Assembly (NCBI GenBank): GCA_964373045.1
Contig: CAYJSI010000004.1
Coordinates: 194-64,193, forward strand
Source of the DNA: an uncultured bacterium
Lineage (GTDB): Bacteria; Omnitrophota; Omnitrophia; Omnitrophales; Aquincolibacteriaceae
Direction: 5' to 3'
DNA length: 64,000 nt
Shown here: piece by piece, positions 6,856 to 50,760 of the stretch
How the letters are laid out: every line of letters starts with the position of its first letter
Position numbering within the stretch: position 1 is the first letter of the stretch
Made by a program: the position numbers and the translations under genes
The notes under the pieces: model-generated
Databases searched by the model: none
Seen by the model: the letters and a program-made list of their open reading frames with translations, nothing else
What the model was told of the DNA's origin: nothing

Positions 6856-6883
6856 GTAGGGGCGACTCGCGAGTCGCCCGTAC
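6856..6883. repeat. GTAGGGGC-family palindromic element (short form)
   Basis: GTAGGGGCGACTCGCGAGTCGCCCGTAC is a near-perfect hairpin in the spacer before the AKR gene. Confidence 0.7.
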
Positions 6884-6890
6884 TACCGCC

Positions 6891-7859
6891 ATGAAACACC
6901 GCATTCTCGGGAAAACGGGTCTTCGGGTTTCCGAAGTCGGTTTTGGCGCCTGGGCGATCGGGGGAACAAGCTATGGTCCCACCCGCGATGAAGATTCGCT
7001 CGATGCCCTCGAGGCCGCCTGGGAATCCGGGGTTAACTTTTTTGATACGGCCGATACCTACGGCCACGGTCACAGCGAAACTCTTCTCAGCCGTTTCCTA
7101 AAAAATAAACCGCGCCATCAAACCATCATCGCTTCAAAGGTGGGCTGGGATTTTTATCACGGCGCCAGCCGCAAAAATTTCGATCTCACTTATGTGCGTT
7201 TTGCGCTTGAGCAAAGCCTGAAGCGACTTGAACTTGAGACGATCGATCTTTATCAGCTTCACAACCCTTCGATTGAATTGATTAAGCGGGGTGAGCTCGT
7301 CGGCCTGCTTGAGGAGTTCAAAAGGGAAGGGAAGATCCGTTTCATCGGAACGTCCATCCATAGCAAAGACGAGGCCTTTGCCGCGATGGAGGATCCGCGG
7401 GTGGATACGCTTCAACTTGTCTTCAATCTCCTCGATCAGCGTATGGCCGAAGAGGTATTTCCTGAAGCTCAAGCGAAAAATATCGGCCTGATCGTGCGCG
7501 AACCCTTGGCCTTCGGCATGCTTACGGGCAAATACACGGCGGATCACGAGTTTCACAAAATAGATCACAGGCGCCGCTTCATGCGGGAGCAGCTGGAGAA
7601 CGATCTTAAAAAAATTGAAGCCGTCAAAGGTGTTTTATCAACGAAACATTTGCCGCTTGTGCGGGCAGCGCTTGAGTTTATTTTGAATTTTTATTCCCTT
7701 TCCACTGTGATCCCCGGCGCTAAATCAAGGGCTCAAGTGCTGGAGAATGTTCAGGCATCGAATGATCCGAAACTTCGGATGGAGGAATTGCGGCGTTTGA
7801 GGGAACTTTATTTGAAAGAACCGATTTTTCGGGAAATATTAAAATTTAAAATAATGTAG
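6891..7859 (+). CDS. aldo/keto reductase
   Basis: ILGKTGLRVSEVGFGAWAIGG and DTADTYGHGHSE are AKR signatures. Confidence 0.85.
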   Translation: MKHRILGKTGLRVSEVGFGAWAIGGTSYGPTRDEDSLDALEAAWESGVNFFDTADTYGHGHSETLLSRFLKNKPRHQTIIASKVGWDFYHGASRKNFDLTYVRFALEQSLKRLELETIDLYQLHNPSIELIKRGELVGLLEEFKREGKIRFIGTSIHSKDEAFAAMEDPRVDTLQLVFNLLDQRMAEEVFPEAQAKNIGLIVREPLAFGMLTGKYTADHEFHKIDHRRRFMREQLENDLKKIEAVKGVLSTKHLPLVRAALEFILNFYSLSTVIPGAKSRAQVLENVQASNDPKLRMEELRRLRELYLKEPIFREILKFKIM

Positions 7860-7918
7860 GGGCGCACCCGTGTGTGCGCCCTACGGATAGACGGGCAGAT
7901 ACATGGGTCTGCCCCTAC
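7856..7918. repeat. GTAGGGGC-family palindromic element (full two-hairpin form)
   Basis: GTAGGGGCGCACCCGTGTGTGCGCCCTAC followed by GGATAGACGGGCAGATACATGGGTCTGCCCCTAC. The outer ends are inverted (GTAGGGG/CCCCTAC). Confidence 0.75.
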
Positions 7919-7945
7919 AATTCACAACCGAGGTTTTGTCAAAAT

Positions 7946-9142
7946 ATGAAACACATCGTCATTGTTCCGGATGGTTTGGGGGATTGGCCGGTTGCTGAGC
8001 TCGGCAATAAAACACCGCTTGAGGCCGCCCACATTCCTCATCTTCATGCCCTTGCCAAAAAATATATACAGGGGACGCTGCGGACAACCCCTGAAGGGAT
8101 GTATCCGGGAAGCGACGTGTGCGGGCTCAGCCTCATGGGTTATGATCCGAAGGTCTGCTACACCGGCCGCGCACCGCTTGAAGCCGCTAATTTAAGTTTA
8201 GTGCTTGGGCCGGGCGAGCTTGCCTTCCGGACGAATCTTGTGAATGTGGAAAACGGCGTCCTCGCGGACTATAGCGCCGATCATGTAACAACCGAGGAAG
8301 CAGCCATCCTCATCCAGACGATTCAAAAGGAACTCGGGACGAAGGACATTCAGTTTTATCCCGGCAAGATGTACCGGCATATCATGATCTCTAGAAAACC
8401 TCTGACCTTTGACGTGAAGACGGATCAGCCGCATGATTTTCAGGGGGAGCCTTATGCCCAACACTTGCCGCGCGGCAAGGGAGCAGAAATCTTAATCGAT
8501 CTTACGGAAAAATCAAAAGCCGTGCTTGAAAATCACCCCGTCAATATTGAACGGGCAAGACGGGGGAAAAAGAAGGCCAATATGATTTGGTTTTGGGGCG
8601 GCGGCGGCGCGCCCAAGCTTGAGCGATTCGAAAAAAAATTCGGGGTGAAGGGCGGCGTGATTTCTGCCGTCGATCTTTTAAATGGTTTGGGCCGCTATCT
8701 CGGATGGGAAATTATATCGGTTCCCGGCGCCACGGGTTATTTTGACACGGATTACAGGGCGAAAGGGGAGTATGCCGTCAAGGCCCTGGAGCGCCTCGAC
8801 CTTGTGTTTGTGCATATCGAAGCGACGGACGAGGCGGGCCACTTAGGACTCGCCAAAGAAAAAGTGAAGGCCATCGAGGAAATCGACCGCCATGTGGTGG
8901 GCCCTCTCGTCAAACACACAAGCCGGTTAAAAGAGTGGCGCCTTTTCGTGGCCCCCGACCATTACACGCCGACGGCTAAAAAGACCCATGTGGGAGATCC
9001 CGTTCCCTTCATTTTTGCGGGTTCCGATGTGGCACGATCATCCCATTTGCCGTATACTGAAAAGGCCGCCGAGTCGACGGGTATCTATGTGGACCCCGGG
9101 CATGATCTCATGCGCCGGCTGATTCAAGGCTGGAATTATTAG
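7946..9142 (+). CDS. apgM: 2,3-bisphosphoglycerate-independent phosphoglycerate mutase, archaeal type
   Basis: VIVPDGLGD and HIEATDEAGH are metalloenzyme-superfamily motifs. Overall length and layout fit ApgM. Confidence 0.8.
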   Translation: MKHIVIVPDGLGDWPVAELGNKTPLEAAHIPHLHALAKKYIQGTLRTTPEGMYPGSDVCGLSLMGYDPKVCYTGRAPLEAANLSLVLGPGELAFRTNLVNVENGVLADYSADHVTTEEAAILIQTIQKELGTKDIQFYPGKMYRHIMISRKPLTFDVKTDQPHDFQGEPYAQHLPRGKGAEILIDLTEKSKAVLENHPVNIERARRGKKKANMIWFWGGGGAPKLERFEKKFGVKGGVISAVDLLNGLGRYLGWEIISVPGATGYFDTDYRAKGEYAVKALERLDLVFVHIEATDEAGHLGLAKEKVKAIEEIDRHVVGPLVKHTSRLKEWRLFVAPDHYTPTAKKTHVGDPVPFIFAGSDVARSSHLPYTEKAAESTGIYVDPGHDLMRRLIQGWNY

Positions 9143-9152
9143 GAGGATCTCA

Positions 9153-9554
9153 ATGGCAACGCTTACTTTGTTTCAGAAGAAAAAAGCAGCATCTCCCCGG
9201 GAAGGAAACGAGCGCTCCGAGCTCAGGCTTCCCATCCATGGATTTACGGTGGAGTTTAAACGCGGAAAAATTTTCAAGTGGATTGTAAGGGGAGAAGTCC
9301 GCGATCTTTCCATCCACGGGGTTCACTTTGTGACCTCAAAGAGATTTGCGCGGGGAAATCGTGTGAATCTCACCCTTTGCTTTCCTGAGGAGTTTCCGGG
9401 TCCGAAGAGATTGATGCTGGATGCCAAGGTGGTGCGGGTCATACGGCCGGAAGGGGCACGTGAATGGCGAGTGGCCTGCTGTCTTAGACATCCCGATGAT
9501 GCCACCCGAGAAACCATTCGGCAGTATTTGTGGTGGTATGAAACCCTTTCTTAA
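9153..9554 (+). CDS. PilZ-domain protein (c-di-GMP receptor)
   Basis: RxxxR (RSELR) and D-x-S-x-x-G (DLSIHG) motifs with appropriate spacing. Confidence 0.6.
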   Translation: MATLTLFQKKKAASPREGNERSELRLPIHGFTVEFKRGKIFKWIVRGEVRDLSIHGVHFVTSKRFARGNRVNLTLCFPEEFPGPKRLMLDAKVVRVIRPEGAREWRVACCLRHPDDATRETIRQYLWWYETLS

Positions 9555-9559
9555 AACTT

Positions 9560-10714
9560 ATGAATCTAACGCCTGAACAACTCACGCGCTACAGCCGCCA
9601 CTTCATCCTTCCTGAAATCGGGGAAGAGGGGCAGAAAAAACTCCTCAAGGCCAAGGTCTTATTGATCGGGGCCGGCGGGCTTGGCTCGCCCCTCGGGCTT
9701 TACCTTGCCGCCTCGGGTGTGGGGACGCTCGGGATTGTCGATTTTGACAATGTCGATCTTTCAAACCTCCAGCGCCAGATCCTTCACACCAATGATGAGA
9801 TCGGAAAGCCAAAAATCGATTCGGCCGAGAAACGCATCAAGGCCATGAATCCGGATACAAGGGTTGTGAAGTATCCGGTGCGCCTCGCCTCTGACAATGC
9901 GCTCGATATCCTGAAAGATTACGATATTGTGATTGACGGCACGGACAACTTTCCGACCCGCTATCTTACAAACGATGCCTGCGTTTTTTTAAAAAAACCC
10001 AATCTCTACGGCTCGATCTTCCGTTTTGATGGCCTCGCGACTGTTTTTTCCGCCGGAGGTCCTTGCTACCGGTGTCTTTATCCCGAGCCGCCTCCTCCCG
10101 GAATGGTCCCAAGCTGTGCCGAAGGGGGAGTGCTCGGAATTCTGCCGGGTGTGATTGGTCTTATCCAGGCCACGGAAGCGATCAAGCTGATTGTAGGGAT
10201 CGGCACGCCGCTCATTGGGCGTCTGCTTGTCTACGATGCCCTGCAGATGACCTTTCGCGAGCTTAAGATCCGCAAGGATCCGAATTGTCCCGTGTGCGGA
10301 AAAAACCCCACGGTTACAAAATTAATCGATTATGAAGTTTTCTGCGGTCTGGGACGGGGCGGGCAGGAAAACTCGGCCTCTGAAAATGGCGTGGCTGAAA
10401 TATCTGTCGAAGAGCTTAAGAAAAAGCTGGATCGCAAGGAAGATATTGTTTTCCTGGATGTTCGCGAAAACTTTGAATATCAAATCGCCAAAATCCCCGG
10501 GACAAAGCTCATTCCGCTGGGGCAGCTCCCAAATCACCTGGGCGAACTTGAGTCCTGCAAGGATAAAGAGGTGATTGCCCACTGCCATCACGGGGGCCGC
10601 AGCCGCCAAGCCCTTGAGTTTCTGAAGTCCAAGGGCTTCAAGAAACTCCGCAATGTCACAGGCGGTATCGACGAGTGGTCCCTTAAAGTCGATTCCTCCG
10701 TCCCCCGCTATTAG
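9560..10714 (+). CDS. ThiF/MoeB-family adenylyltransferase fused to a C-terminal rhodanese domain (MoeZ-like sulfur-carrier-protein activating enzyme)
   Basis: GAGGLGS nucleotide loop. CxxC ... CPVCG zinc motif. C-terminal rhodanese with active Cys (AHCHHGGRS). Confidence 0.85.
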   Translation: MNLTPEQLTRYSRHFILPEIGEEGQKKLLKAKVLLIGAGGLGSPLGLYLAASGVGTLGIVDFDNVDLSNLQRQILHTNDEIGKPKIDSAEKRIKAMNPDTRVVKYPVRLASDNALDILKDYDIVIDGTDNFPTRYLTNDACVFLKKPNLYGSIFRFDGLATVFSAGGPCYRCLYPEPPPPGMVPSCAEGGVLGILPGVIGLIQATEAIKLIVGIGTPLIGRLLVYDALQMTFRELKIRKDPNCPVCGKNPTVTKLIDYEVFCGLGRGGQENSASENGVAEISVEELKKKLDRKEDIVFLDVRENFEYQIAKIPGTKLIPLGQLPNHLGELESCKDKEVIAHCHHGGRSRQALEFLKSKGFKKLRNVTGGIDEWSLKVDSSVPRY

Positions 10715-10717
10715 TCC

Positions 10718-11815
10718 GTGCCTTCTCTCTGGCAAAAAATCCGCCTCGATTTTCCCATGGTAAAAAAATGGATTTACCTGGATCATGCCTCAGGGGGACC
10801 CATTCCGCGGCCCGTACTTCAAGCCTCCCGGCGCTATTTAAAAGAACATTTTGAATTGGGCGATCTCTCCTGGGCCGCGTGGATCAAACGCCGCGAGGAG
10901 GTCCGGAAAAAAGCAGCACGCTTGATCAACGCCGACCCCTCTGAAATTACATTTATTCAGAGCACCTCTCAGGGGATGAATCTTATTGCCGACCTTTTGG
11001 CGGATCAGGGCGCGGTTCTGACCAACGCAAGCGAATTTCCCGCGAGCACGCTTCCCTGGATTTGGCGGAAGGCCAGGATGATTTGGCAGAATCCCGAAAA
11101 TTCTGCCATCAGGCTTGATACGCTCAGGAAACTTTTGTCGCCTGAAGTTAAAACAATTCTTACGAGCTTCGTGCAATACGCGACCGGGTTTCGCCAGGAT
11201 TTGGAAGCCCTTGGCAGAATCAAAGGGAACCGCTTTCTGGTGGTCAATGCCACGCAGGGATTCGGCGCTTTTCCGATTAATGTGAAGCGCGCCAAAATCG
11301 ATTTCCTCTGCACCAATAGTTACAAGTGGCTTATGGCGGGCTACGGCGGCGGCATCCTTTATATGAAGAAGGATTGGATGCGAAAATTCAAACCCTCCCA
11401 AGTAGGGTGGCGGAGCATGCGGGAGCCTGAGCTCATGGACAATCGGCGCCTCGATCTTAAACCGGAGGCCTCCCGCTACGAACTTGGCTGCCCGAGTTTT
11501 CCCTCCATTTTTGCCTTGGGGGCGGCGGTGGATTATCTTTCGGAGATCGGCATCGAAAAAATCAGCCGCCGGATTTTAGAACTCACCGATTTCCTTATCG
11601 ACGGCCTTGAGCGAAGCGGGCTTGAAGTGGTTTCACCGCGCGAGCGGACGCATCGTTCGGGAATCGTTGTGTTTAAAATGAGCCACGCCGAAAAAGTATG
11701 CCGCCGGCTTCTTCGTGATCATATTTATGTCTCACCGCGCGGGGCCGGGATCCGCGTCGCGCCGCATTGTTATAATACATTTGAGGAAATTGAAACATTC
11801 CTAAATGCGCTGTAG
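10718..11815 (+). CDS. class V aminotransferase / cysteine desulfurase-like PLP enzyme
   Basis: Fold-type I PLP enzyme with a SYKW lysine region. It sits next to the MoeZ-like gene. Confidence 0.7.
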   Translation: MPSLWQKIRLDFPMVKKWIYLDHASGGPIPRPVLQASRRYLKEHFELGDLSWAAWIKRREEVRKKAARLINADPSEITFIQSTSQGMNLIADLLADQGAVLTNASEFPASTLPWIWRKARMIWQNPENSAIRLDTLRKLLSPEVKTILTSFVQYATGFRQDLEALGRIKGNRFLVVNATQGFGAFPINVKRAKIDFLCTNSYKWLMAGYGGGILYMKKDWMRKFKPSQVGWRSMREPELMDNRRLDLKPEASRYELGCPSFPSIFALGAAVDYLSEIGIEKISRRILELTDFLIDGLERSGLEVVSPRERTHRSGIVVFKMSHAEKVCRRLLRDHIYVSPRGAGIRVAPHCYNTFEEIETFLNAL

Positions 11816-11878
11816 GGGCGCACCTATGTGTGCGCCCGTTGTGCGGTCCACGAGTCGACACGTGGGTCGACCCCTGCA
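11812..11878. repeat. GTAGGGGC-family palindromic element
   Basis: GTAGGGGCGCACCTATGTGTGCGCCC ... GTCGACACGTGGGTCGACCCCTGCAGC. Confidence 0.75.
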
Positions 11879-11917
11879 GCCAATAAAAATGGACCTAGCC
11901 CCGTTAAAGGGAAGTTT

Positions 11918-12604
11918 ATGATGCCAAAAATCGGTGTTGTTTTATCCGGCTGCGGAGTCATGGATGGTTCTGAGATCCATGAATCGGTTTTGACGCTGCT
12001 TGCCTTGTCACAGGCGGGGGCCGAGGCGGTTTGCCTGGCCCCGAATGTGGACCAAGTGCAGGTCATCAATCACCTCACAGGGGAAGAGACGAAAGAAAAA
12101 CGCAATGTCCTTGTCGAGTCCGCCCGCATTGCCCGCGGAAAAATCAAAGACATCAAAACCGTAAAGGCGAGTGATTTCGACGCCCTCATTTTCCCCGGGG
12201 GTTACGGCGCGGCCAAAAATTTATGCACGTTTGCTTTCGACGGGGCCGATTGCAAGGTTCACCCGGAGGTGGCAAGGTTGGTGAAGGAAGTTCATCAAGC
12301 CGGGAAACCGATCGGGGCGATTTGCATTTCGCCCGCCCTCATGGCCAAGATTTTTCAAGGGGGAGCGGTGAAGCTTACGATCGGCGATGATCCCGAGACG
12401 GCGGGGGCGATCCAAAAAATGGGGCAAGAGCACGTACCATGCAACGTCCGCGAGACCTGTGTGGACGAAAAAAATAAAATAGTGACAACCCCCGCTTACA
12501 TGCTGGCTCAAAATCTTGCCGAGGCGTATGCGGGAATTGAAAAATTAGTGGGCGAGGTGCTCTCGCTTTCCAAAACCAAAGAGGTCAAAACCAAAGGAGT
12601 CTGA
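11918..12604 (+). CDS. elbB: DJ-1/PfpI-family protein ElbB (glyoxalase-like)
   Basis: MPKIGVVLSGCGVMDGSEIHE and the ICISPA cysteine are typical of ElbB. Confidence 0.8.
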   Translation: MMPKIGVVLSGCGVMDGSEIHESVLTLLALSQAGAEAVCLAPNVDQVQVINHLTGEETKEKRNVLVESARIARGKIKDIKTVKASDFDALIFPGGYGAAKNLCTFAFDGADCKVHPEVARLVKEVHQAGKPIGAICISPALMAKIFQGGAVKLTIGDDPETAGAIQKMGQEHVPCNVRETCVDEKNKIVTTPAYMLAQNLAEAYAGIEKLVGEVLSLSKTKEVKTKGV

Positions 12605-12636
12605 CCCTGCGGGGTCAGACTCCATCAGTTTTTATG
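12596..12636 (+). terminator. hairpin GGAGTCTGACCC-TGC-GGGTCAGACTCC plus T-run
   Basis: Read directly; it overlaps the elbB stop. Confidence 0.45.
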
Positions 12637-12638
12637 CC

Positions 12639-13868
12639 ATGATCAAGAAACGCATCCTTTTCCCGCTTTTGTTCCTCCTTTTTATTTTTCTCGCCAGGGG
12701 TTTTATTGTCGGGAGCGTCCTCGAGCCCTATTTCGAGAAAACATTGAGCGAGCTTTTCGGAATGCGGGTTGAAATTAAGGAACTCTTTCTCGATCCCCTC
12801 CATGGAAAGGTCCGGGCCTCGCGACTTACATTTCACCATCGCTCCGAGTTTGCCCCGGCGCCCCACCTGGACGCCAAGGGGATTGAATTTTCGATTCACC
12901 TCGGCGCCCTGCAAAATAAAAGCGTAGAAATTTCAAATCTTATTTTGAATCAGCCTTTCTATTTCATTGACCGCATCGCAACGCCCGAGGGCCCCCGCAA
13001 CAACGTGGTCACCTGGTTTCGCCATATCAAAAGCAGACGTCGACCCAGGGCAGCCGATGAGCCTGAGGATCCCAGGAAGTGGAAGGTCGCGATCGATAAA
13101 ATTTCACTGCGTGACACAACCTTTATCATCCATGACCGCAGCCCTAAGGAGGGTGAAAAGAAATTTGTCTTTCGCAAGATGGATGCCACACTCCTCGGTT
13201 TTGAGTGGCCTGCCGAGGACCCGGAGATTTTATCGCAGCGCGTGACAGTCAAGGGTCTCTTTGGGGAACATTACCCCGCCCCTTTTTGGATCACGGGAGA
13301 CGCTAATTTTGCCACGAGTCAGATCAATTTTGACTTGAAGGGCGCGATCAAGGAAGGAAATCTCCTTGAGCATAAACGGCTTTGGGAGGGGCTTCCGATT
13401 GAGATTAAGAAGGGAAGGTTTCAGCTTAAGATGCATGTCATTTGCGAAAAGCGGCAACTCAAGTCGATAAACCATTTAAGGCTCCAAACGCTGGAGGCAA
13501 AATCGGGTCCGGCAGCAGCGGATAAAATTTGGGGATTGCCGACGCTTGGGTTTATTGGGATCCTGCAGGACAAAAAAACGATCTCGCTTAAAGTTCCCGT
13601 GAAGGGCAATATTTCGGATCCGGAGTTTGGGTTTCACAAGGCTTTTCGTGAAGCCTTCCAGGTGTCTCTCAAAAAGCATACGACGGCAGGAATCAAGAAA
13701 GTAACGGAAGGGACGGCAAAAATCGCTACTCAAACCGGAGAACTCGTGCGCGAGACGCCGACCAAATTGGCCGAAAGTTTTGAAAAAGTAACCGGTCTTG
13801 TTTCCAGCATTTTGCCTCCGGCGGCGGAATCCGGTGCCTCGAAAGATCAGAAAGCGGTGCGTTCGTAA
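12639..13868 (+). CDS. membrane-anchored hypothetical protein (AsmA/DUF748-like?)
   Basis: N-terminal TM helix and a long ORF. Translationally coupled to era (TAATG). Confidence 0.5.
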   Translation: MIKKRILFPLLFLLFIFLARGFIVGSVLEPYFEKTLSELFGMRVEIKELFLDPLHGKVRASRLTFHHRSEFAPAPHLDAKGIEFSIHLGALQNKSVEISNLILNQPFYFIDRIATPEGPRNNVVTWFRHIKSRRRPRAADEPEDPRKWKVAIDKISLRDTTFIIHDRSPKEGEKKFVFRKMDATLLGFEWPAEDPEILSQRVTVKGLFGEHYPAPFWITGDANFATSQINFDLKGAIKEGNLLEHKRLWEGLPIEIKKGRFQLKMHVICEKRQLKSINHLRLQTLEAKSGPAAADKIWGLPTLGFIGILQDKKTISLKVPVKGNISDPEFGFHKAFREAFQVSLKKHTTAGIKKVTEGTAKIATQTGELVRETPTKLAESFEKVTGLVSSILPPAAESGASKDQKAVRS

Positions 13869-14779
13869 TGCCTTCCGAAAAACGCGCTCATCAACTCGGT
13901 TCCAGGCACTCCGGATTTGTCGCCATTATCGGCCGGCCGAATGTGGGAAAGTCGACACTTCTTAATTATCTCATCGGTGAAAAATTGGCCGGTGTATCTC
14001 CCAAGCCGCAAACCACGCGCGAAGTCATTCGAGGGATTCTCACGAAGCCGGAGGGGCAAATCGTCTTTCTCGATACCCCGGGATTTCATAAGCCGGAGGA
14101 TCTTCTCGGTCAATGGATGGTCCGCGAGGTCGAAAAAAGCCTGGAGGAGGCCGATCTCCTCTATTGGATGGTGATCCCGGAGGCCATGCGTCCCGAGGAA
14201 AGGAAAATCGCGGAAACGCTTAAGAGGGCGATGACGCCTGTCATTTTACTTGTGAATCAAATCGATCGTTATCCCAAGCCGCATCTCCTTCCCGTGCTGG
14301 CCGAATATCAATCGGCGCATCCCTTTCGCGAAATGATTCCCATTTCGGCCAAAACGGGCGATCAAGTGGAAGCGCTTCTTAAAAAAACCTTTGAGCTGCT
14401 CCCCGAGGGAGCGCCCCTTTTTCCCGAGGATCAAATCTCCGATCAACAGGAGCGGTTTCATGTGGGGGAAATCATCCGCGAAAAACTTTATCTTTTTACG
14501 GGCGAAGAAATCCCTTATGCGACGAGTGTGATGGTCGAATCTTTTAAAGATCGCAACGATCGCTTGACCGATATTCAGGCGACGATCATTGTGGAAAAAG
14601 ATTCTCAGAAGGGAATTGTGATCGGAAAAAATGGGGAAAAAATGAAACAAATCGGCCAAGCTGCCCGGCTCGATCTTGAAAGATTTCTCGGCCGCAAGGT
14701 CTTTCTCCAGCTTTGGGTTAAAACCCTGCCGCACTGGAAACGCGACAAGGCCGCTTTTCACCGCCTCGGCTATCACTAA
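13868..14779 (+). CDS. era: GTPase Era
   Basis: G1 motif GRPNVGKST, G3 DTPG and a C-terminal KH domain. Confidence 0.92.
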   Translation: MPSEKRAHQLGSRHSGFVAIIGRPNVGKSTLLNYLIGEKLAGVSPKPQTTREVIRGILTKPEGQIVFLDTPGFHKPEDLLGQWMVREVEKSLEEADLLYWMVIPEAMRPEERKIAETLKRAMTPVILLVNQIDRYPKPHLLPVLAEYQSAHPFREMIPISAKTGDQVEALLKKTFELLPEGAPLFPEDQISDQQERFHVGEIIREKLYLFTGEEIPYATSVMVESFKDRNDRLTDIQATIIVEKDSQKGIVIGKNGEKMKQIGQAARLDLERFLGRKVFLQLWVKTLPHWKRDKAAFHRLGYH

Positions 14780-14780
14780 C

Positions 14781-14840
14781 CACCAAATCAGTTGGTGCCA
14801 GGCACCGTGCCAGGCACGGTGCCTGGCACCATTAGGGTTT
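14781..14840. repeat. GGTGCCWGGCACC tandem palindrome element (terminator-like)
   Basis: GGTGCCAGGCACCGTGCCAGGCACGGTGCCTGGCACCATTAGGGTTT immediately 3' of era. Confidence 0.8.
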
Positions 14841-14855
14841 TAGGAATATTGATAT

Positions 14856-15653
14856 ATGAATAAAACAAATTTGTTGATGTGTCCGCCGGATTATTACGAA
14901 GTGGCCTACGAGATCAATCCCTGGATGCACGTGGAACGCAAAGTGGATTCCAAAAAGGCCGCGTGGCAGTGGAGGGCTTACTTCGATCTTCTCACCTCGA
15001 CCCTCCAAATTAAAGTCGAGCTCTTAAAACCCGTCAAGGGCCTGCCGGACCTTGTGTTTACCGCGAATGGAGGACTGGTGCGCAAAAGAACTTTTGTCCG
15101 CGGCAATTTCCGCCACCGCGAGCGTAAGGGTGAAGAGGTTCACTTTGAAACCTGGTTTAAGAAAAAAAATTATCTCGTGAAAACTATAGACCGCCCCTTT
15201 TGTTTCGAAGGGGAGGGCGACGCCCTTTTTATGGGCGATGAACTTTATACGGGATTTCATTTTAGGTCGGATGTGGAGGCCCACGATGCCGTCTCGGGGC
15301 TTCTTAAGACTTCCTACTTCGCCTTGGAGCTAAGTGACAAACGGTTTTATCACTTAGACACCTGCTTTGCCCCCTTGAATGATAAATCGGCCCTGGTTTA
15401 TCTCCCTGCCTTTGAGCCTTACGCCCAACTGGTGCTCTTAGAAAATATTCCGGATCCCATCAAGGTCTCCGAGAAGGAGGCCCTGAATTTTGCCTGCAAT
15501 GCCCTGGTGCTCGATCAAAATATTATTTTGCCGGAAGAGTGTCCGCAAACAACGAAAGAACTTGAAAAGCGGGGATTTCGCGTCTACCCTCTCGCCTTTT
15601 CCGAATTTATGAAGGCCGGCGCCGCCGCCAAGTGTTTGGTGTTGAGAATATGA
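14856..15653 (+). CDS. amidinotransferase/DDAH-superfamily protein
   Basis: A 265-aa protein ending in an active-site-like Cys (KCLVL). The family call is weak. Confidence 0.5.
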   Translation: MNKTNLLMCPPDYYEVAYEINPWMHVERKVDSKKAAWQWRAYFDLLTSTLQIKVELLKPVKGLPDLVFTANGGLVRKRTFVRGNFRHRERKGEEVHFETWFKKKNYLVKTIDRPFCFEGEGDALFMGDELYTGFHFRSDVEAHDAVSGLLKTSYFALELSDKRFYHLDTCFAPLNDKSALVYLPAFEPYAQLVLLENIPDPIKVSEKEALNFACNALVLDQNIILPEECPQTTKELEKRGFRVYPLAFSEFMKAGAAAKCLVLRI

Positions 15654-16267
15654 AAAAAAAGTGTCAGATCAAAACCATTATCTTCGACCTCGGAAACGTA
15701 CTTCTCAATTACGATGCGAGGAAGGCGGCTGCTCGATTTGCCAAGGTCTGCAAGGTCCCGCTTCTTAAAGTCTGGCTTCATTTTTTTACCTCGCCGACAG
15801 AAAAGGCCTACACGCGGGGTGAAATATCCTCCACTGAATTTTACCGCCACGCCAAGCAGGCGCTTCGTTTTCCCGTAAACTTCCGGACCTTCAAACATTA
15901 TTGGAACGATATTTTTTCGGAAAATCGGGAAATGGCCCCGGTCTTGCGGGCCCTCAAAAAAAATTATCCCCTATATCTCATCTCCAACACCAACCGCATG
16001 CACTTTGATTACGTGAAAAAAAAATTTAAGATCCTGCGTTATTTCAGCCGCACTTTTCCCTCGCATGAAGTGGGGCATCGGAAGCCTGAGATTGAAATTT
16101 ACCGAAAGGTGCTTCGCGCAATCTGCTGCCGCCCCGAGGAAACCGTTTTTATCGATGATGTCGCAAAGTTTGTGCAGGGGGCCCGCCGGGCGGGGATGCA
16201 CGCTATCCGTTTCCGAAACTTAAAACAACTGGTTCGTGACCTCAAAAAATTAGGGGTTATCATCTGA
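15650..16267 (+). CDS. HAD-family hydrolase
   Basis: IIFDLGNVLL is HAD motif I. The ATGA overlaps the upstream stop. Confidence 0.75.
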   Translation: MKKKCQIKTIIFDLGNVLLNYDARKAAARFAKVCKVPLLKVWLHFFTSPTEKAYTRGEISSTEFYRHAKQALRFPVNFRTFKHYWNDIFSENREMAPVLRALKKNYPLYLISNTNRMHFDYVKKKFKILRYFSRTFPSHEVGHRKPEIEIYRKVLRAICCRPEETVFIDDVAKFVQGARRAGMHAIRFRNLKQLVRDLKKLGVII

Positions 16268-16503
16268 CCATGTCTAAACGAGTTATGGAAACGCATCGGT
16301 CTTGTCCCAAAGAACTGGCCGACGGATAAAATTAAATTAGAGGTTTGGTCGCAAAATTAAAAAGGCACCCTTCCAAACGATCAAGGTTCACATCTGGGAC
16401 CCGCACAATTAGAAGGGGTACTTATACTTCTTGATTTTTGAGACTCGACCGTGTACCCTTTAGGTAGGAAAGTAAGGAAGTAATACCAAAGGAGCCTCCA
16501 GCC

Positions 16504-16767
16504 ATGACCATTATTGAAGCAACCAAAATGACCTCCAAGGGGCAGGTAACAATCCCGAACCGCGTCAGAAAACTTCTCCGTTTAGAGGAGGGCTCGTCGG
16601 TGGCTTTCACGGTCACAAGGCATGGTATTGTGCTTGTTCCGTGCGAAATCACCGCCCGGTCTCCCTACAGCCCGAACGAGTGGAAAAAGATCGAGAAATT
16701 AGCCGCCGAGGAAGGAAAGGCCTTTTCAAGTCCTGAAGCGGCCAAAAAACATCTTGCGGGGCTATGA
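16504..16767 (+). CDS. AbrB/MazE/SpoVT-family antitoxin
   Basis: SKGQVTIPNRVRKLL is a swapped-hairpin barrel motif. It overlaps the toxin by 4 nt. Confidence 0.75.
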   Translation: MTIIEATKMTSKGQVTIPNRVRKLLRLEEGSSVAFTVTRHGIVLVPCEITARSPYSPNEWKKIEKLAAEEGKAFSSPEAAKKHLAGL

Positions 16768-17042: not shown

Positions 17043-17063
17043 ACATGTCCTTGAAATTGCGCC

Positions 17064-19275: not shown

Positions 19276-20763
19276 GTGATCCGAAAAACCTCTCCTCAGG
19301 ATATTCAACCCTACCTTACGGATGCCTCTAACTTTCAAGGCGGTCATGCCGAGGGAGTTGCTTTTCCGGAGTCCGAGAAAGAAGTCGTTGAGTTTATAAA
19401 AGAGGCGCATGCACACGGAACCCCTGTAACTATTGCAGGGAATGGAACCGGTTTAACCGGCGCCCGCGTCCCGACAGGGGGCTGGGTGCTTGCCACGGAT
19501 CGCCTTTCAAAAATCAAGCGGATCGAAAAAGACCCGGTGCGAAGATCCTCTTACGCCGTTATCGAGCCGGGATGCCAGCTTAAAACCCTTCAAGACGCGC
19601 TTGGCTCGCTAGCTCTTTTTTATCCTCCGGACCCCACCTCCTTCAAATCTTTTTTGGGAGGCAATGTGGCCACGAACGCCTCGGGTCCGCGCTCCTTTCG
19701 CTATGGGCCGACGCGCGATTTCATTCGAAGATTGCGGATAGTACTGGCGGACGGATCCCTTCTTCATCTTGAGCGCGGAAAAATTTTTGCGAACGCCGTC
19801 GGTGAAATCGAAATCCCGGCCTCAGGTTCCAAAATTAAAATCAAGATCCCGAGTTATGCCATGCCTCCCATTAAACACACGGCGGGTTATTTTGCGAAAC
19901 CTAAGATGGATGCCATCGATCTTTTTATCGGGTCTGAGGGGACGCTGGGTATGGTGACAGAAATCGAAGTCGCCTTAGTGAATCCGCCCCGGGACTATTT
20001 TAGTTATGTCCTTTTTTTCGCAAGCGAGGAAGCTTCTTGGAATTTCGCGGAGGATGCGCGATTCGTGAGCCGCCGGCACCGGGGCGAGCGAAACGATGCC
20101 GCAATCCAAGCCCGCGCCTTGGAATATCTAGATGGCCCTTCTCTTGATTTCATCCGCGCAAAATATCCTACGGTGCCCCGTGAGGCCCGCGCCGCTATTT
20201 ATTTAGAGCAAGAGTGCCAGCCGGAAACGAAAGATTTATTGATCGATCGATGGGGCGCTCTCTTTGAAAAACATAAGGCGCTTGTGGAAGATGTGTGGCT
20301 GGGTGAAAGTGAGGAGGAACATGAAAAATTCAGAGCCTTCCGCCACGAAGTGCCGCTTGAAGTGAAGGCCTTCCTCGCCCAACACGGACAAAGCAAAGTC
20401 GGAACCGATATGGCGGTGCCTGAGAAGGCCTTTAAAGATTTAATGCTCTTTCAAAGAAAGCGACTGAATGACCTTGGGATTCGGAATATCACCTTTGGCC
20501 ACATCGGAGATTGCCATGTTCACCTCAATATTCTCGCGCAAAACGGGGAAGAGCATGCCCGGGCCTGGGGCCTCTACCATGAATTGATTCAAAAGGCCCT
20601 TCAGTTGGGGGGCACCATCGCCGCCGAGCATGGTGTCGGCAAGCTGAAAAAATGTTATCTTGTCGAAATGTTTGGCCAGAAGGGAATCGAAGAGATGGCG
20701 GCTGTCAAAAAAGCGTTTGACCCTAAGATAATCTTGGGGCGGGGGAATATATTGGATATGTAG
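19276..20763 (+). CDS. FAD-linked oxidase (GlcD/D-lactate dehydrogenase family)
   Basis: FAD_binding_4 motif VTIAGNGTGLTG. Confidence 0.8.
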   Translation: MIRKTSPQDIQPYLTDASNFQGGHAEGVAFPESEKEVVEFIKEAHAHGTPVTIAGNGTGLTGARVPTGGWVLATDRLSKIKRIEKDPVRRSSYAVIEPGCQLKTLQDALGSLALFYPPDPTSFKSFLGGNVATNASGPRSFRYGPTRDFIRRLRIVLADGSLLHLERGKIFANAVGEIEIPASGSKIKIKIPSYAMPPIKHTAGYFAKPKMDAIDLFIGSEGTLGMVTEIEVALVNPPRDYFSYVLFFASEEASWNFAEDARFVSRRHRGERNDAAIQARALEYLDGPSLDFIRAKYPTVPREARAAIYLEQECQPETKDLLIDRWGALFEKHKALVEDVWLGESEEEHEKFRAFRHEVPLEVKAFLAQHGQSKVGTDMAVPEKAFKDLMLFQRKRLNDLGIRNITFGHIGDCHVHLNILAQNGEEHARAWGLYHELIQKALQLGGTIAAEHGVGKLKKCYLVEMFGQKGIEEMAAVKKAFDPKIILGRGNILDM

Positions 20764-20822
20764 GGGCCGACCCATGTGTCGGCCCTGTGGTCCACGGGCG
20801 GACACGCGGGTCCGCCCCCTAC
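20760..20822. repeat. GTAGGGGC-family palindromic element
   Basis: GTAGGGGCCGACCCATGTGTCGGCCC ... GGGCGGACACGCGGGTCCGCCCCCTAC. Confidence 0.75.
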
Positions 20823-21884: not shown

Positions 21885-23126
21885 ATGAGCCAAAAGTCCC
21901 CCATCATTCGAAAAAGCTTTGGCCTTAAAGAAGAGATCCGTCCGCAGCTCAAAGCCAGCTATCACAGCAACTTAATCGATCAGATTAAAACGAACGGATT
22001 TCAAATGAAATCCGGCCGCTTGACGCTCAAGCTCGCTGAGGAGTTTGGTTTTTGCTACGGAGTCGACCGGGCCATCGACTATGCCTATGAGACCCGTGCC
22101 CAATTTCCGGGCAAGCGAATTTTTATCACCAATGAAATCATCCACAATCCCCGCGTGAACGCCAAGCTTCAGGAAATGGGGATCCAGTTTCTCTCGGGCC
22201 CCTACGCTTGCGGGATTACCGCGGACGACATCCGCGAGGATGACGTCGTGATTTTCCCCGCCTTTGGAACCACGCTAAAAGAGCTCGATCAGCTTCAAAA
22301 ACGAGGCTGCGTGCTTGTGGACACGACCTGTGGCTCGGTGATGAGTGTGTGGAAGCGGGTCGAGTCTTACAGCCGTGATGCCTTTACCTCCGTCATTCAC
22401 GGCAAGTATGATCACGAAGAGACCATGGCCACAAGCTCTCGGGCCACCCAGTATCCCGGCGGTAAATATCTTATTGTGCGTGACAAAGTCCAGGCACAAA
22501 CCGTTTGTGATTATATTGAGGACCGGGGTGAGCGCGAAGCCTTCTTAAAGGAATTTGCCTCGAGTCTATCCGCCGGTTTTGATCCTGATCAGGATCTTGC
22601 GCATCTCGGCTGCGCGAATCAAACGACCATGCTTTCGAGCGAATCCTTGGAGATTGCCAGTATGCTTCAGGAATCCATGCGCAAGCGTTTTGGCGCCGAG
22701 GAGCTCCCCAAGCGATTCCGTCATTTTGATACGATTTGTTCGGCGACTCAGGAGCGCCAGGACGCTGTTTTTAAGCTCGTTCGCGCCGGTGTGGACCTCA
22801 TGATTGTGGTGGGCGGTTACAATTCGAGCAATACGGGGCACCTGGTGGAAATATCCCTCGATTTTTGTCCCGCCTTTCACGTGAAGGATGCCGAGTGCAT
22901 TATTTCGAGGAATCTCATTCAGCACAAAAAAGTTTTCAGCTCGGAGATTATCGAAACTGCAAACTGGCTTCCCGCGGGAGAGATGAGAATCGGTGTGACA
23001 GCCGGGGCCTCGACTCCGAATCGTGTGATTGAAGAAGTGATCGAACGAATCATTGCCGTAGGGGCCGACCCGCGTGTCGGCCCGTCAATCACAGGGCGGA
23101 CACATGGGTCCGCCCCTACGTTATGA
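21885..23126 (+). CDS. ispH: 4-hydroxy-3-methylbut-2-enyl diphosphate reductase IspH (long form); C-terminus runs into a palindromic repeat
   Basis: Conserved Cys residues are present, along with HNPRVN, the long insert, and TAGASTP near the end. The last ~22 aa are encoded by repeat 23058-23119. Confidence 0.85.
   Translation: MSQKSPIIRKSFGLKEEIRPQLKASYHSNLIDQIKTNGFQMKSGRLTLKLAEEFGFCYGVDRAIDYAYETRAQFPGKRIFITNEIIHNPRVNAKLQEMGIQFLSGPYACGITADDIREDDVVIFPAFGTTLKELDQLQKRGCVLVDTTCGSVMSVWKRVESYSRDAFTSVIHGKYDHEETMATSSRATQYPGGKYLIVRDKVQAQTVCDYIEDRGEREAFLKEFASSLSAGFDPDQDLAHLGCANQTTMLSSESLEIASMLQESMRKRFGAEELPKRFRHFDTICSATQERQDAVFKLVRAGVDLMIVVGGYNSSNTGHLVEISLDFCPAFHVKDAECIISRNLIQHKKVFSSEIIETANWLPAGEMRIGVTAGASTPNRVIEEVIERIIAVGADPRVGPSITGRTHGSAPTL
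23058..23119. repeat. GTAGGGGC-family palindromic element (forms the 3' end of the ispH ORF)
   Basis: GTAGGGGCCGACCCGCGTGTCGGCCC ... GGGCGGACACATGGGTCCGCCCCTAC. Confidence 0.75.
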
Positions 23127-41220: not shown

Positions 41221-42357
41221 ATGAATTTATCCGATTTTGATTTTAAACTTCCCGAAGGGCGTATCGCGGTTTTCCCGCCCGAAGATCGAGCCAGCGCCCG
41301 TCTCCTCAGAGTCGACAAACAGTCAGGAACTATTTCGCACCACGTTTTCCGCGACCTTCCTCAATTTCTTCAAGCCGGAGATCTGCTTGTGCTGAATGAT
41401 ACGAAAGTGATTCCCGCAAGAATTTTCGGCCAAAAAGAGACCGGAGGCCGGGTGGAGGCCCTCCTCCTTGAGGATTTGGGAGAAGGGAAGTGGGAAGCCT
41501 TGCTCCGTTCCGGAGGACGAATTAAAAAAAATTCGATGCTCGCTTTTGGAGAAAACGGCCTGAGGGTTGAGGCCGAGGTTTTAGATGACGCAAGGCCGGA
41601 TTCAGGGGAACGCCTTTTGGATTTCAATGTAGGGGCCGATCTGCGCCCGCCCACCGGCGAGGCGGGTGTCGGCCCGCATACGGGCGGACACATGGGTCCG
41701 TCCCTACGACAAATTTTTAAAAAAATCGGGCATATACCCCTGCCGCCCTACATCGACCGCCCGGATTCTCCGATCGATCGGAAAATGTACCAAACGGTTT
41801 TTGCTGAAAAAGAGGGGGCGGTAGCATCGCCCACCGCCGGTCTTCATTTTGATGAAAAACTTCTCGATAAGATTCGAGCCAAAGGAATCGAAATAGCTTT
41901 TGTCACACTTCACGTCAGTTACGGGACGTTTCAGCCCATTGCAGTCGAAAATTTAGCCGAGCACAAAATGTTTGAAGAACGATTTGAAATCACTGCCGAA
42001 ACTGCCGGCCAAATCAACCGTGCCTTGAGCGAAAAGCGGCGAATCATTGCTTGCGGGACTACGGTGGTAAGGGTATTAGAGTCTGCCTGTAGGGGCGCGG
42101 TCCCCGCGCCCGGGACTCAGGGCGGGGGAACTTTACCCCTGCAACCCATGAAGGGCAGGACCCGGCTTTTTATTTATCCTCCCTATGAATTTAAAATCGT
42201 GCAGGGGCTGATTACCAATTTTCATCTGCCCAAAAGTTCTCTTCTGCTTTTGGTGAGCGCGTTCTTGGGCCGCCAAAAATTATTAAATGCCTATGACGAA
42301 GCGATCCGTGAAGGATATCGTTTTTATAGTTACGGGGATGCGATGGTGATCTTGTGA
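41221..42357 (+). CDS. queA: S-adenosylmethionine:tRNA ribosyltransferase-isomerase QueA, carrying two in-frame palindromic-element insertions
   Basis: Collinear with E. coli QueA (GHIPLPPYIDRPD, TAGLHFDE, TNFHLP, YRFYSYGDAM). It is about 25-30 aa longer, with the extra residues at 41629-41707 and 42089-42146. Confidence 0.9.
   Translation: MNLSDFDFKLPEGRIAVFPPEDRASARLLRVDKQSGTISHHVFRDLPQFLQAGDLLVLNDTKVIPARIFGQKETGGRVEALLLEDLGEGKWEALLRSGGRIKKNSMLAFGENGLRVEAEVLDDARPDSGERLLDFNVGADLRPPTGEAGVGPHTGGHMGPSLRQIFKKIGHIPLPPYIDRPDSPIDRKMYQTVFAEKEGAVASPTAGLHFDEKLLDKIRAKGIEIAFVTLHVSYGTFQPIAVENLAEHKMFEERFEITAETAGQINRALSEKRRIIACGTTVVRVLESACRGAVPAPGTQGGGTLPLQPMKGRTRLFIYPPYEFKIVQGLITNFHLPKSSLLLLVSAFLGRQKLLNAYDEAIREGYRFYSYGDAMVIL
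41629..41707. repeat. GTAGGGGC-family palindromic element inside queA
   Basis: GTAGGGGCCGATCTGCGCCCGCCCACCGGCGAGGCGGGTGTCGGCCCGCATACGGGCGGACACATGGGTCCGTCCCTAC. Confidence 0.75.
42089..42146. repeat. GTAGGGGC-family palindromic element inside queA (second copy)
   Basis: GTAGGGGCGCGGTCCCCGCGCCC ... CCCCTGCAAC; the end type matches the element at 11812. Confidence 0.65.
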
Positions 42358-48344: not shown

Positions 48345-48376
48345 GGACTGATCGTTAGGCCGTTCCCCCTTCTTCC

Positions 48377-49846
48377 GTGAAAATTGTTTTCGCAGCTTCC
48401 GAGATGGTCCCGTTTGCCAAGACGGGTGGTTTGGCAGATGTCATCGGAGCCCTTCCCGACGAAATTCATCGTTTAGGTCACGAGGCGGCGGTTTTCATCC
48501 CTCGCTATAAAAGCCTGAATCTTGAAAGAGGCGGTTTTCATTCCGAAATCGACCGGCTTGAAGTTCCGCTTGGCAGCGATCAGGAGACAGGGCGGATTTT
48601 CAAATGCGTCCTTCCGAGCGGGCTTGTGGTTTATGCGGTGGATCATCCCGAATTTTTCTGCCGCGACGGCATCTACGGAACCGTGCTGGGCGATTATCCG
48701 GATAATGACCGGCGTTTCATTTTTTTTCAGCGGGCGCTTTTAGAGTCGCTCAAGCTCTTGGGTTTTAAGCCGGATGTCATTCATTGTCATGATTGGCAGA
48801 CAGGTCTGATACCGGTTTATATCAAAACATTCTATGCCAATGACTCGTTCTTTCAAAAAACCAAGACCGTTTTTACGATTCACAATTTAGGCTATCAAGG
48901 TAATTTCCCGCCGGACTCGCTTCCGGCCACGAACCTATCCTGGGATCAATTTCGGATCGAGCGCCTCGAATTCTACGGCAAGTTCAGCTCGATGAAGGGC
49001 GGGATCCTCGATGCCGACGCCGTGACAACCGTAAGCGAACGCTACGCGCGCGAAATCCAGTCCAAGGAATTCGGCTGTGGCCTGGAAGGCGTACTCTCGA
49101 AGCGCCATTCCACGATTTCCGGTATCTTGAACGGGATCGACCACGAGGAGTGGGACCCGGAAAAAGATCCTGATATTGCGAGTCCTTACGGTTTAAAGAA
49201 GCTCGATGGGAAGGCGCTTAATAAAAGCGCGCTTCAAAAGGAAAACGATCTTGCGCCGGATCCCAGGGCCCCGTTGATCGGGATGGTCTCACGCCTTACG
49301 GATCAGAAGGGGATCGATATCTTGATTCCTGCGATCACAACACTTCTGAGGCGGGGAGCGCAATTTGTTTTGCTCGGGACCGGCGAAGAAAGATACCACC
49401 AAGTTTTTCGTGAGTTTGCCAAAAAACATAAAGGGGTCTGCGCCGTTCATATCTTATTTGATGCCAAAATGGCGAAGCGTATTTATGCCGGCTGCGATAT
49501 GATGTTCTGGCCTTCCTATTACGAACCCTGCGGCCTCGGGCAGTTGATCGCCCTTCGCTACGGAACGATCCCGGTGGTCCGAGCCACGGGAGGGTTGGCA
49601 GACACAGTGAAGGATTTTGATCCCAAATCGGGAGAGGGAAACGGATTTTCCTTTTTGGAATACACAAGCGATGCATTTCTTGAGGCCGCCGACCGCGCCA
49701 TCGGCATTTACCGGAATCCGGAGAAGTGGCAGCGTGTGATCCAAAATGCCATGGAAAGTGATTACTCCTGGACGGTCTCAGCCAAGAAATATGTGGCACT
49801 TTACGAAAAGACAAAACGCCGCATGGTCGAAAATTTAGAAAGTTGA
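48377..49846 (+). CDS. glgA: glycogen synthase
   Basis: KTGGLADV motif. GT-B fold, 489 aa. Confidence 0.9.
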
Positions 49847-49857
49847 GGGTGAAAAAT

Positions 49858-50637
49858 ATGCTGGATGTTTTAAAAATTGGCCGCTATGAACTTCGTTCCC
49901 CCTTGATCCTGGGGACAGGGAAGTACACGACTTTCGAGGTGATGGTGCGTGCCCTTGAGGCCTCGGGGACCGAGATGGTGACTGTCGCGATCGGGCGGGT
50001 CAATCTTGCGAACAGAAATGAGAAAAACATTTTGGATTATATCGATCGCGATAAATTCACCCTGCTTCCCAACACCGCGGGGGCCTACACGGCAGAAGAT
50101 GCCATCCGCATTGCAAGGCTGGCCCGGGCAGCGGGGATCGGGGACCTCGTGAAACTCGAAGTCCTGGGGAATCAAAAAACCCTGCTTCCGGATACCGTGG
50201 CACTTCTGGAAGCGACCAAGGTTTTGGTGAAGGAGGGTTTCACGGTGATGCCCTACACGAACGATGATCCGATTATGGCCAAGAGATTGGAAGACGCGGG
50301 TGCGGCGTGTGTCATGCCGCTTGCCGCTCCCATCGGTTCCGGGCGTGGCATTCAAAACCGGCTCAATCTGAAATTTATTTTGGAATCTGTTTCCTGCCCC
50401 GTGATTATCGATGCGGGGGTTGGTACGGCCTCAGATGCAGCGATTTGTATGGAGCTTGGCGCCGACGGCGTTTTAATGAATACGGCGATCGCCGAGGCGA
50501 AGGATCCTATCCTTATGGCAGAGGCCATGCGTGAGGCGATTTCGGCCGGCCGCAAGGCGTACTTCGCCGGCCGCATGCCGATCAAAGAATACGCCTCCGC
50601 CTCGAGTCCGCAGGAAGGGTTGGCGATTAAAACGTAA
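49858..50637 (+). CDS. thiG: thiazole synthase
   Basis: TIM-barrel ThiG motifs ([20 protein letters not shown]). Confidence 0.88.
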
Positions 50638-50643
50638 TGCGAT

Positions 50644-50760
50644 GTAGGGGTCGACCCATGTGTCGACCCGTGTTATCTCGCCCACCCATATTGGGCGGGG
50701 CAACCCCGCCCCTACAATCCAATTGCATTATGACGGGCAGACACGCGGGTCTGCCCCTAC
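50644..50760. repeat. compound GTAGGGGC-family palindromic element (three hairpins)
   Basis: GTAGGGGTCGACCCATGTGTCGACCC ... GCCCACCCATATTGGGCGGGG ... GACGGGCAGACACGCGGGTCTGCCCCTAC. Confidence 0.75.

Follow-up and report, generated by a model that had tools for sequence, protein, structure and literature searches.

What kind of element is a short palindrome that recurs at ten places in 64 kb of bacterial DNA, with stems that differ from copy to copy and stay complementary? The question is raised by a stretch of 64,000 nucleotides from an uncultured bacterium of the Omnitrophota (family Aquincolibacteriaceae; GenBank assembly GCA_964373045.1, contig CAYJSI010000004.1, positions 194 to 64,193 of the forward strand). 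We call this whole stretch the window, and coordinates below are positions in it. An earlier description made from the letters alone, which we will term the sequence-only reading, proposed a structured element and named three options: a repetitive extragenic palindrome (REP) or bacterial interspersed mosaic element (BIME), a transposable element of the miniature inverted-repeat type (MITE), or an RNA motif. Our answer is that the repeats are very probably REPs that belong to the GTAG super-family and for the most part form head-out inverted dimers (REPINs, or BIME-like), and that they are non-autonomous selfish DNA, presumably spread by a REP-associated tyrosine transposase (RAYT, or TnpA_REP). 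This answer is carried by the anatomy of the unit, the covariation of its stems, its near-identity with published REPs of subclass 2.4, its association with RAYT genes in other genomes, and an empty site in a relative.

Anatomy and abundance of the unit

The basic unit is 26 nt long: the foot GTAG, an 8-bp stem (GGGC-NN-AC), a 6-nt loop (CCRYGT), and the return arm (GT-NN-GCCC). By inspecting the sequence at each coordinate and scanning for hairpins, we count about 18 units at 10 sites in the window. The element is present at each of the ten positions that had been listed (2708, 3311, 6856, 7856, 11812, 20760, 23058, 41629, 42089, and 50644), so the estimate of about ten copies holds for sites but not for units. 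Similarly, the motifs of the supposed conserved central core are real, but they do not form the core of a single element: there are two separate 26-nt hairpins, and CCRYGT and ACRYGG are their loops.

GTAG stands directly before the GGG-led stem in 14 of the roughly 18 units (exceptions are GCAG at 11877 and 42146 and GTAA at 2708), and the GGG...CCC stem base is present in all of them. Six of the ten sites hold head-out inverted units, with the GTAG heads outside, either as pairs or, at 50644, as a triple. Left units mostly have the stems GCGCAC or GCCGAC and right units GGCGGAC or GGCAGAC. The variants are double-foot forms with a foot at each end (2708, 3311, and 6856), short-stem forms (42089 and 50693), and one unit that is split by a nested hairpin (41629-41675).

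The density is high. GTAGGGGC occurs 13 times on the two strands of the window; dinucleotide-preserving shuffles, by comparison, average 1.08 and never exceed 4. For the paired form GTAGGGGC-N20-50-GCCCC, the count is 5 and the expectation 0.04. When we searched the window with a covariance model of the 11 canonical units, no further canonical copies turned up, and the variants were recovered weakly (13-20 bits). All these counts refer to the 64 kb of the window.

Covariation and folding

The stem pairs quoted in the sequence-only reading (GCGCAC/GTGCGC, GCCGAC/GTCGGC, GTCGAC/GTCGAC, GGCAGA/TCTGCC, and GGCGGA/TCCGCC) are all present and complementary, and its claim of compensatory covariation is borne out. 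Across the 11 canonical units of the window, 97.7% of stem cells form standard pairs, and three of the eight stem pairs show double-sided changes (CG/UA; GC/CG/AU; GC/CG), in 10 cells. No shuffle out of 500 scored as high for covariation, and pairing fell to 32-57% when the 3′ partner was displaced by 1-3 columns.

Two larger sets, from other genomes, give the same result. In 80 RAYT loci that were picked by protein match, we took every GTAGGGG head without consulting pairing; the middle stem pairs in these units were occupied by GC 64, AT 47, and CG 9; by GC 69, AT 53, and CG 15; and by AT 82, CG 31, and GC 21. In a pattern scan of species genomes (described below), the two free stem positions were complementary in 147 of the 158 matches listed, although the pattern did not require pairing. 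REP sub-families ordinarily covary in this way (PMC3733652, section 'GTAG families').

When folded as single-stranded DNA, the dimers and the trimer form single long hairpins at minimum energy (−19 to −32 kcal/mol, z −2.1 to −5.9). We also took the distinct units in which a single pair is not Watson-Crick: on the GTAG strand, this pair is G.T in 34 and A.C in 17 (p 0.02). This weakly favours strand-specific folding on the GTAG strand and does not separate DNA from RNA. The stems of the window have three non-Watson-Crick pairs, and two of these are A.C on that strand.

Near-identity with REPs of subclass 2.4

A literature search with the unit and its encoded peptides as strings returned nothing relevant in main texts; the match was in a supplement. 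Table S1 of Quentin et al. 2018 (PMC6006769) lists GTAGGGGCGGACCTGTGTGTCCGCCC, GTAGGGGCGGACCTATGTGTCCGCCC, and GTAGGGGCGAACCTGTGTGTTCGCCC as REPs of subclass-2.4 TnpA_REP from Nitrosococcus, with the structure ....((((((((......)))))))), and the table contains GTAGGGGC 105 times. Apart from one loop base and the covarying stem positions, GTAGGGGCGGACCTGTGTGTCCGCCC and GTAGGGGCGAACCTGTGTGTTCGCCC are the same as units of the window. The GTAG foot, the three basal G-C pairs, the 8-bp stem, and the 6-nt loop are the same. According to the account of subclass 2.4 in the same paper, these REPs have three G-C pairs at the foot, occur in 'double-foot' forms, and have copies within the tnpA_REP gene. 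Subclass 2.4 corresponds to RAYT Group 4 of Bertels et al. 2017, which their survey places in 17 bacterial classes (PMC5581495). The window and subclass 2.4 also share double-foot forms, tolerance of in-frame intragenic copies, and a patchy spread across phyla. More generally, a GT[AG]G foot, a GC-rich palindrome, head-out dimers, and compensatory sub-families together are the published definition of a GTAG-type REP.

There are also differences. The intragenic copies in the window lie in housekeeping genes rather than in a RAYT gene, no cognate RAYT was seen for this genome (the search covered the 64-kb window), and Candidatus Omnitrophota is not among the hosts named in the passages of the two papers considered here (PMC6006769, PMC5581495).

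Association with RAYT genes in other genomes

We clustered 2841 open reading frames (ORFs) from 119 REP-bearing loci, all against all, and this gave no recurrent neighbour gene. The largest cluster covered 8 loci. Judging by the sequence, its product may be an ABC-type ATPase. As clustering did not reveal a shared neighbour, the link to RAYT was found by profile search. In a metagenome-assembled genome (MAG) of Alkaliphilus (locus L070), a 201-amino-acid ORF with the motifs NHVH and YIETNP is a relative of E. coli RayT (E 9e-7). Its gene contains a REP unit in frame (encoding VGADPCVCP), and a head-out dimer lies 80 bp downstream. At E <= 1e-10 we obtained over 2000 homologues of this protein, assigned to PF01797; REP-encoded peptides are present in 107 of its 120 best homologues. 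The consensus of the family runs MPNHFH - VGADLRVCP - GEHxGSPL - WFKTMTTNEY - WQRNYYEHIIRNE - YIxNNP, with WQRNYYEH. Because of the motifs NH[IFV]H, WQ, and YIxNNP, the length of about 194-195 amino acids, and the in-gene REPs, the family fits subclass 2.4 as it is characterized in PMC6006769.

The association can be read in the other direction from the 80 metagenomic loci, which were retrieved by the RAYT protein alone. Canonical units lie within the RAYT gene at 57 of these loci and within 400 bp of it at 28, with just 14 units in the other 253 kb (0.055 per kb in these far flanks). The stems of units outside the gene equal those of in-gene units at the same locus in 28 of 48 cases, against a mean of 7.0 and a maximum of 17 when loci are permuted. 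This type of REP is thus physically tied to subclass-2.4 RAYT genes in other genomes.

Spread across phyla and an empty site in a relative

We scanned 185,579 species genomes with the pattern GTAGGGGCNNACCCRYGTGTNNGCCC and found at least 119 stretches; our estimate for chance matches is fewer than about 3, even if the G+C content were 70%. The phyla that carry this 26-nt pattern, with one and the same small set of stem variants, number at least 20 and range from AT-rich Firmicutes and Bacteroidota to GC-rich Chloroflexota. Isolates among the matches listed include Nodosilinea sp. P-1105, Dysgonomonas sp. PF1-14, and Ruminococcus sp. JL13D9. The unit is also present in other Omnitrophota genomes (L037, L088, and L110), one of which has a head-out GCAC/AGAC dimer that resembles the one at 7856. 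LeuB of the window shares 65-75% identity with LeuB proteins labelled Candidatus Omnitrophica/Omnitrophota by their sources, which makes an Omnitrophota MAG its most likely origin.

A related Omnitrophota genome, GCA_016196565.1, has the same gene order thiG-leuB-asd as the window (locus L204, 1-12032). There, a REP-free gap of 3 bp separates thiG from leuB, the genes nearly abut, and the whole 12 kb is free of the unit. In the window, the thiG-leuB spacer is 144 bp long and holds three REPs. An empty orthologous site is the pattern that would be expected of insertion. The relative's REP-free stretch also suggests that the expansion of the REPs is lineage-specific within the phylum.

Some loci from these searches have unusual arrangements. 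Tandem REP arrays are present in Shackletoniella antarctica (L084, 2140-2510, six repeats with a period of 69 bp), in a Bacteroidales MAG (L031, ~1700-1880, four repeats of 48 bp), and just upstream of a RAYT gene (L135, ~57-355, four repeats of 91 bp). Their spacers are near-identical, so they are not CRISPR arrays. In Peptococcaceae bacterium SCADC1_2_3 (L038), two units lie 4.3 kb apart in direct orientation (148-173 and 4496-4521), with about 10 nt of identical sequence upstream and about 50 nt of near-identical sequence downstream, and the pair may bound a larger repeated element. We also considered phage-borne REPtrons and found no evidence for them: no RAYT was detectable in the 28 viral-contig stretches of IMG/VR that carry the REP pattern (some as dimers).

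Copies inside and behind genes

Five of the ten sites in the window are intergenic and lie directly past the stop codons of co-directional genes. The other five are in frame inside genes: two in queG, two in queA, and one at the 3′ end of ispH. The sequence-only reading identified the family and the sites correctly but missed this intragenic position, and it overstated the novelty of an element whose class has been described. A unit can be translated in most frames, as five of the six are open and the only stop, the TAG of the foot, falls in the sixth. Long ORFs hold 36% of the units in other genomes, as compared to 83% of random positions.

At three of the intergenic sites, the TAG of the left GTAG is itself the stop codon of the upstream gene: an aldo-keto reductase (7857-7859), an aminotransferase-like gene (11813-11815), and an FAD-oxidase (GlcD-like) gene (20761-20763). 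We considered whether a GTAG-supplied stop might be a targeting signal and dropped the idea, as this arrangement was found for 15 of 224 units (6.7%) across all loci, against 4.6% of any TAG.

How the repeats may have spread

We propose that each unit would form a hairpin on single-stranded DNA, with GTAG at the 5′ foot, and that a RAYT of subclass 2.4 (an HUH-Y1 single-strand DNA endonuclease/transposase) would read the foot and the hairpin and would cut and rejoin the strand, acting in trans. Copies would be dispersed in this way, and most would settle just behind genes; those that land in one of the five stop-free frames could also settle inside genes. The invariant positions (GTAG, the basal GGG/CCC, the top AC/GT, and the loop CCRYGT) are presumably read by the enzyme. 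On this explanation, a copy must fold to be recognised and propagated, which would let stems vary but keep them complementary. Single-strand cut-and-paste chemistry would follow by analogy with E. coli TnpA_REP (PMC3479197, PMC8266576), and we infer that this genome encodes a subclass-2.4 RAYT. The five copies behind genes could possibly have secondary roles in transcripts, which the data do not call for.

Several points weigh against this proposal. As the sequence-only reading had noted, there is no cognate transposase in the window: we found no RAYT or other Y1/HUH transposase there, and a profile built from 120 RAYTs matches only REP-encoded peptides. An active cognate RAYT in this organism is therefore hypothetical. 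Most of the RAYT loci that we sampled elsewhere have few dispersed REPs, and the passages on Group 4 in Bertels et al. link it to repeats of modest abundance only (PMC5581495), whereas the density in the window is higher than that. Having half of the sites inside genes is atypical for 'extragenic' palindromes; intragenic REP copies have already been reported (PMC3733652). Finally, the spacers of the dimers (6-16 nt) are unconserved in sequence and in length, and no two dimers in the window are identical. So either the copies are old or, unlike in the REPINs of Pseudomonas, the dimers are not the replicating unit here.

The position of half of the sites, directly behind co-directional genes, would also be expected if the hairpins were RNA elements selected in place, as 3′-end stabilisers, processing sites, or factor-dependent terminators, with RAYT mobility irrelevant or secondary. 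The folds are stable enough for this (z −4 to −6), the excess of G.T over A.C on the GTAG strand (34 to 17) is in the right direction, and Di Nocera et al. make the case for many REPs being transcribed and functioning as RNA (PMC3733652). We nevertheless consider an RNA function to be an improbable explanation. The units of a dimer face both ways relative to transcription, the five sites in queG, queA, and ispH are translated, and the A.C pairs on the GTAG strand of the window (two of its three non-Watson-Crick stem pairs) do not fit. A simple known terminator without family structure, the outcome that the sequence-only reading had named as contrary to its own view, does not describe these elements either: no T-tract stands behind any unit. 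A terminator scan called none of the units, none of which is among its 41 terminator-like sites in 6000-24000, yet it called a bidirectional terminator at 12596-12623. As for known RNA families, only a tRNA-Arg in the window passes the gathering threshold in Rfam 15, and two of the dimers have chance sub-threshold matches (22 bits versus thresholds of 45 and 100). A local function also leaves unexplained the tie to one transposase subclass and the recurrence of the GTAG foot and one consensus across 20 phyla or more.

Two other explanations were weighed. The units might be sites for a host chromosomal protein, such as gyrase or a nucleoid protein (as proposed for the BIMEs of E. coli), and be kept for chromosome organisation, so that the link to RAYT is historical. 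The density of the window would suit such a role (about 18 units in 64 kb, whereas RAYT loci elsewhere have 0.055 per kb in their far flanks), as would copies that are old and diverged and yet retain the conserved positions. We think this very unlikely, because intragenic copies speak against a positional role and because the same positions are conserved in unrelated phyla of very different base composition, which points to a co-transferred RAYT and not to host proteins. The dimers could instead be classical MITEs, that is, deletion derivatives of a DDE-type insertion sequence with GTAGGGGC as terminal inverted repeats, moved by double-stranded cut-and-paste. They are indeed short (60-120 bp), dispersed, and non-coding, with inverted ends, and the empty orthologous site in the relative would fit. 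This is hardly credible, however: none of the ten sites has a target-site duplication (in 12-nt flanks), solitary units exist, the internal spacer is unconserved, no DDE transposase recurs near the 119 unit-bearing loci, and the one recurrent partner that was found, by profile search, is a Y1 HUH RAYT. Among the options first put forward, then, the MITE and the RNA motif are unlikely, and the one named first, REP/BIME, is supported: the GT[AG]G foot, the inverted dimers, the nearly base-for-base match to subclass-2.4 REPs, and the linkage to RAYT elsewhere all agree with it.

Spread by a RAYT could have a further consequence. The REP would travel in frame inside its own RAYT gene, with the stems of the dispersed copies at that locus, and the embedded doublet might be a heritable master copy with which a RAYT-REPIN pair re-seeds each genome that it newly invades. 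With five of six frames open, the element would in addition be a recurrent source of peptide insertions in essential enzymes; these would be of two types, VGADPxVxP and GxTHGSAPT, and QueA, QueG, and IspH would be the examples here. We regard this extension as doubtful.

Relation to other REP systems

The REPs and BIMEs of E. coli (RayT, subclass 2.2 or Group 2) similarly have a GT[AG]G foot and an imperfect palindrome and lie behind genes, and the Y and Z REPs are stem sub-types that alternate in inverted dimers, as in the window. In contrast, the stems of the E. coli elements are longer and bulged, and their linkers carry defined motifs with IHF sites, while the window has perfect 8-mers, a fixed 6-nt loop, and unconserved linkers. 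E. coli RayT is detectably related to the RAYTs of this REP family (E 9e-7) but belongs to a different subclass; the RAYTs that are tied to the window's type of REP have the motifs NH[IFV]H and YIxNNP.

In the REPINs of Pseudomonas fluorescens (PMC3116915), an inverted pair of REPs likewise forms one long hairpin, whose mobility is presumed to depend on a single-copy RAYT that acts in trans. There, however, the whole doublet is conserved along with its spacer and has many identical copies, whereas the doublets of the window all differ. The GTAG REPs of Di Nocera et al. 2013 (PMC3733652; for example SMAG of Stenotrophomonas) share with the window the GTAG tag, the predominance of head-head (HH) dimers, sub-families that arise by complementary stem changes, G.T pairs, and some intragenic copies. 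That paper describes 24 families; a comparison with its text and supplements gave no GTAGGGGC-type consensus.

As the type of element, its covariation, the transposase subclass, the tolerance of intragenic copies, and the spread across phyla have all been published, this is a known kind of element in a poorly studied phylum, and no new kind of system is revealed. The results do extend the host range of subclass-2.4 (Group-4) REPs to a candidate phylum without a cultured model, and the cross-phylum survey indicates that the REP sequence is rigidly kept. For annotation, REPs account for the GC-rich palindromes behind genes, for the extended or interrupted QueA, QueG, and IspH, and for stop codons that are supplied by the repeat. 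They are also a warning against calling short ORFs or 'insertions' at REP sites.

Individual sites in the window

The queG gene (ORF 2243-3520; TIGR00276, E 8e-90) carries two 28-nt copies of one double-foot REP, both in frame and on the + strand. The first (2708..2735) has the variant form GTAA-GGGCGAGG-CAGG-CCGTGCCC-TTAC and encodes VRARQAVPL, and alignment shows extra QueG residues at this site relative to PDB 5D08. The second (3311..3338) has a GTAG head, encodes VGARQAVPL, and is weakly recovered by the covariance model (13.5 bits); here the alignment of 5D08 has a 6-residue gap at 'NPVGAR'.

In queA (41221-42357), there is a head-out dimer at 41629..41707, whose left unit (41629-41675) is interrupted by the nested GC hairpin and whose right unit (41682-41707) is on the − strand. 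Relative to the QueA structure in PDB 1VKY, the protein has a 27-residue insertion between residues 142 and 148, exactly at this REP. A degenerate pair, also in frame, lies at 42089..42146. Its left part (42089-42111, +) has a 7-bp stem (GGGCGCG) and a 5-nt loop and scores 18 bits with the covariance model, and its right part is eroded and terminates in CCCCTGCA. A second insertion, of about 10 residues, coincides with it (1VKY has a 10-residue gap exactly at this REP).

The dimer at 23058..23119 has the units 23058-23083 (+, GGGCCGAC) and 23094-23119 (−, GGGCGGAC) and folds with −26.0 kcal/mol (z −5.9). It lies in frame at the 3′ end of ispH (21885-23126), which reads through it, so that the protein has a 22-residue C-terminal tail (VGADPRVGPSITGRTHGSAPTL); the IspH profile ends at residue 393 of 413. 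Two of the three housekeeping genes that bear REPs (queG and queA) belong to queuosine synthesis.

Among the intergenic sites, 6856..6883 (+) is a single REP that starts 3 nt past the stop of a tagatose-bisphosphate aldolase-like gene. It consists of GTAG, GGGCGACT, a CGCG loop, AGTCGCCC, and the foot GTAC, with a DNA fold of −11.8 kcal/mol (z −3.9) and a covariance-model score of 18.3 bits. Three sites are head-out dimers. The one at 7856..7918 (REPIN), with units 7856-7881 (+, stem GGGCGCAC) and 7893-7918 (−, stem GGGCAGAC), forms one long hairpin (−18.8 kcal/mol, z −4.1). At 11812..11877, the units are 11812-11837 (+, GGGCGCAC) and 11852-11877 (−, GGGTCGAC, with the GCAG head). At 20760..20822, they are 20760-20785 (+, GGGCCGAC) and 20796-20822 (−, GGGCGGAC, with one additional G past the head), and the fold is −22.6 kcal/mol (z −4.4). 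The thiG-leuB spacer holds the triple, 50644..50760, with units 50644-50669 (+, GGGTCGAC), 50693-50715 (−), and 50735-50760 (−, GGGCAGAC). The middle unit is the short form GGGCGGG/GTTGC/CCCGCCC, and the triple folds with −31.9 kcal/mol (z −5.2).

Neighbouring features

The gene directly downstream of the 20760 dimer (20861-21871) resembles an anti-phage dCTP deaminase (NF041025, E 7.6e-45, which is below the curated cut-off). In its product, the dCTP deaminase-like part is fused to a kinase-like N-terminus.

Two further hairpins in the window were noticed. The terminator called at 12596-12623, GGAGTCTGACCC-TGCG-GGGTCAGACTCC, is a GC-rich hairpin that pairs perfectly over 12 bp and has a T-rich tail on each strand. 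It has the look of a genuine bidirectional terminator and is unrelated to the REP family. At 54765-54798 there is a perfect 9-bp palindrome, GGGTCAGAC-CCAGTTGG-GTCTGACCC, which is flanked by ATTT and AAAT and has no GTAG foot. Its GTCAGAC core is common to the 12596 hairpin, and it may represent a second, small family of hairpins.

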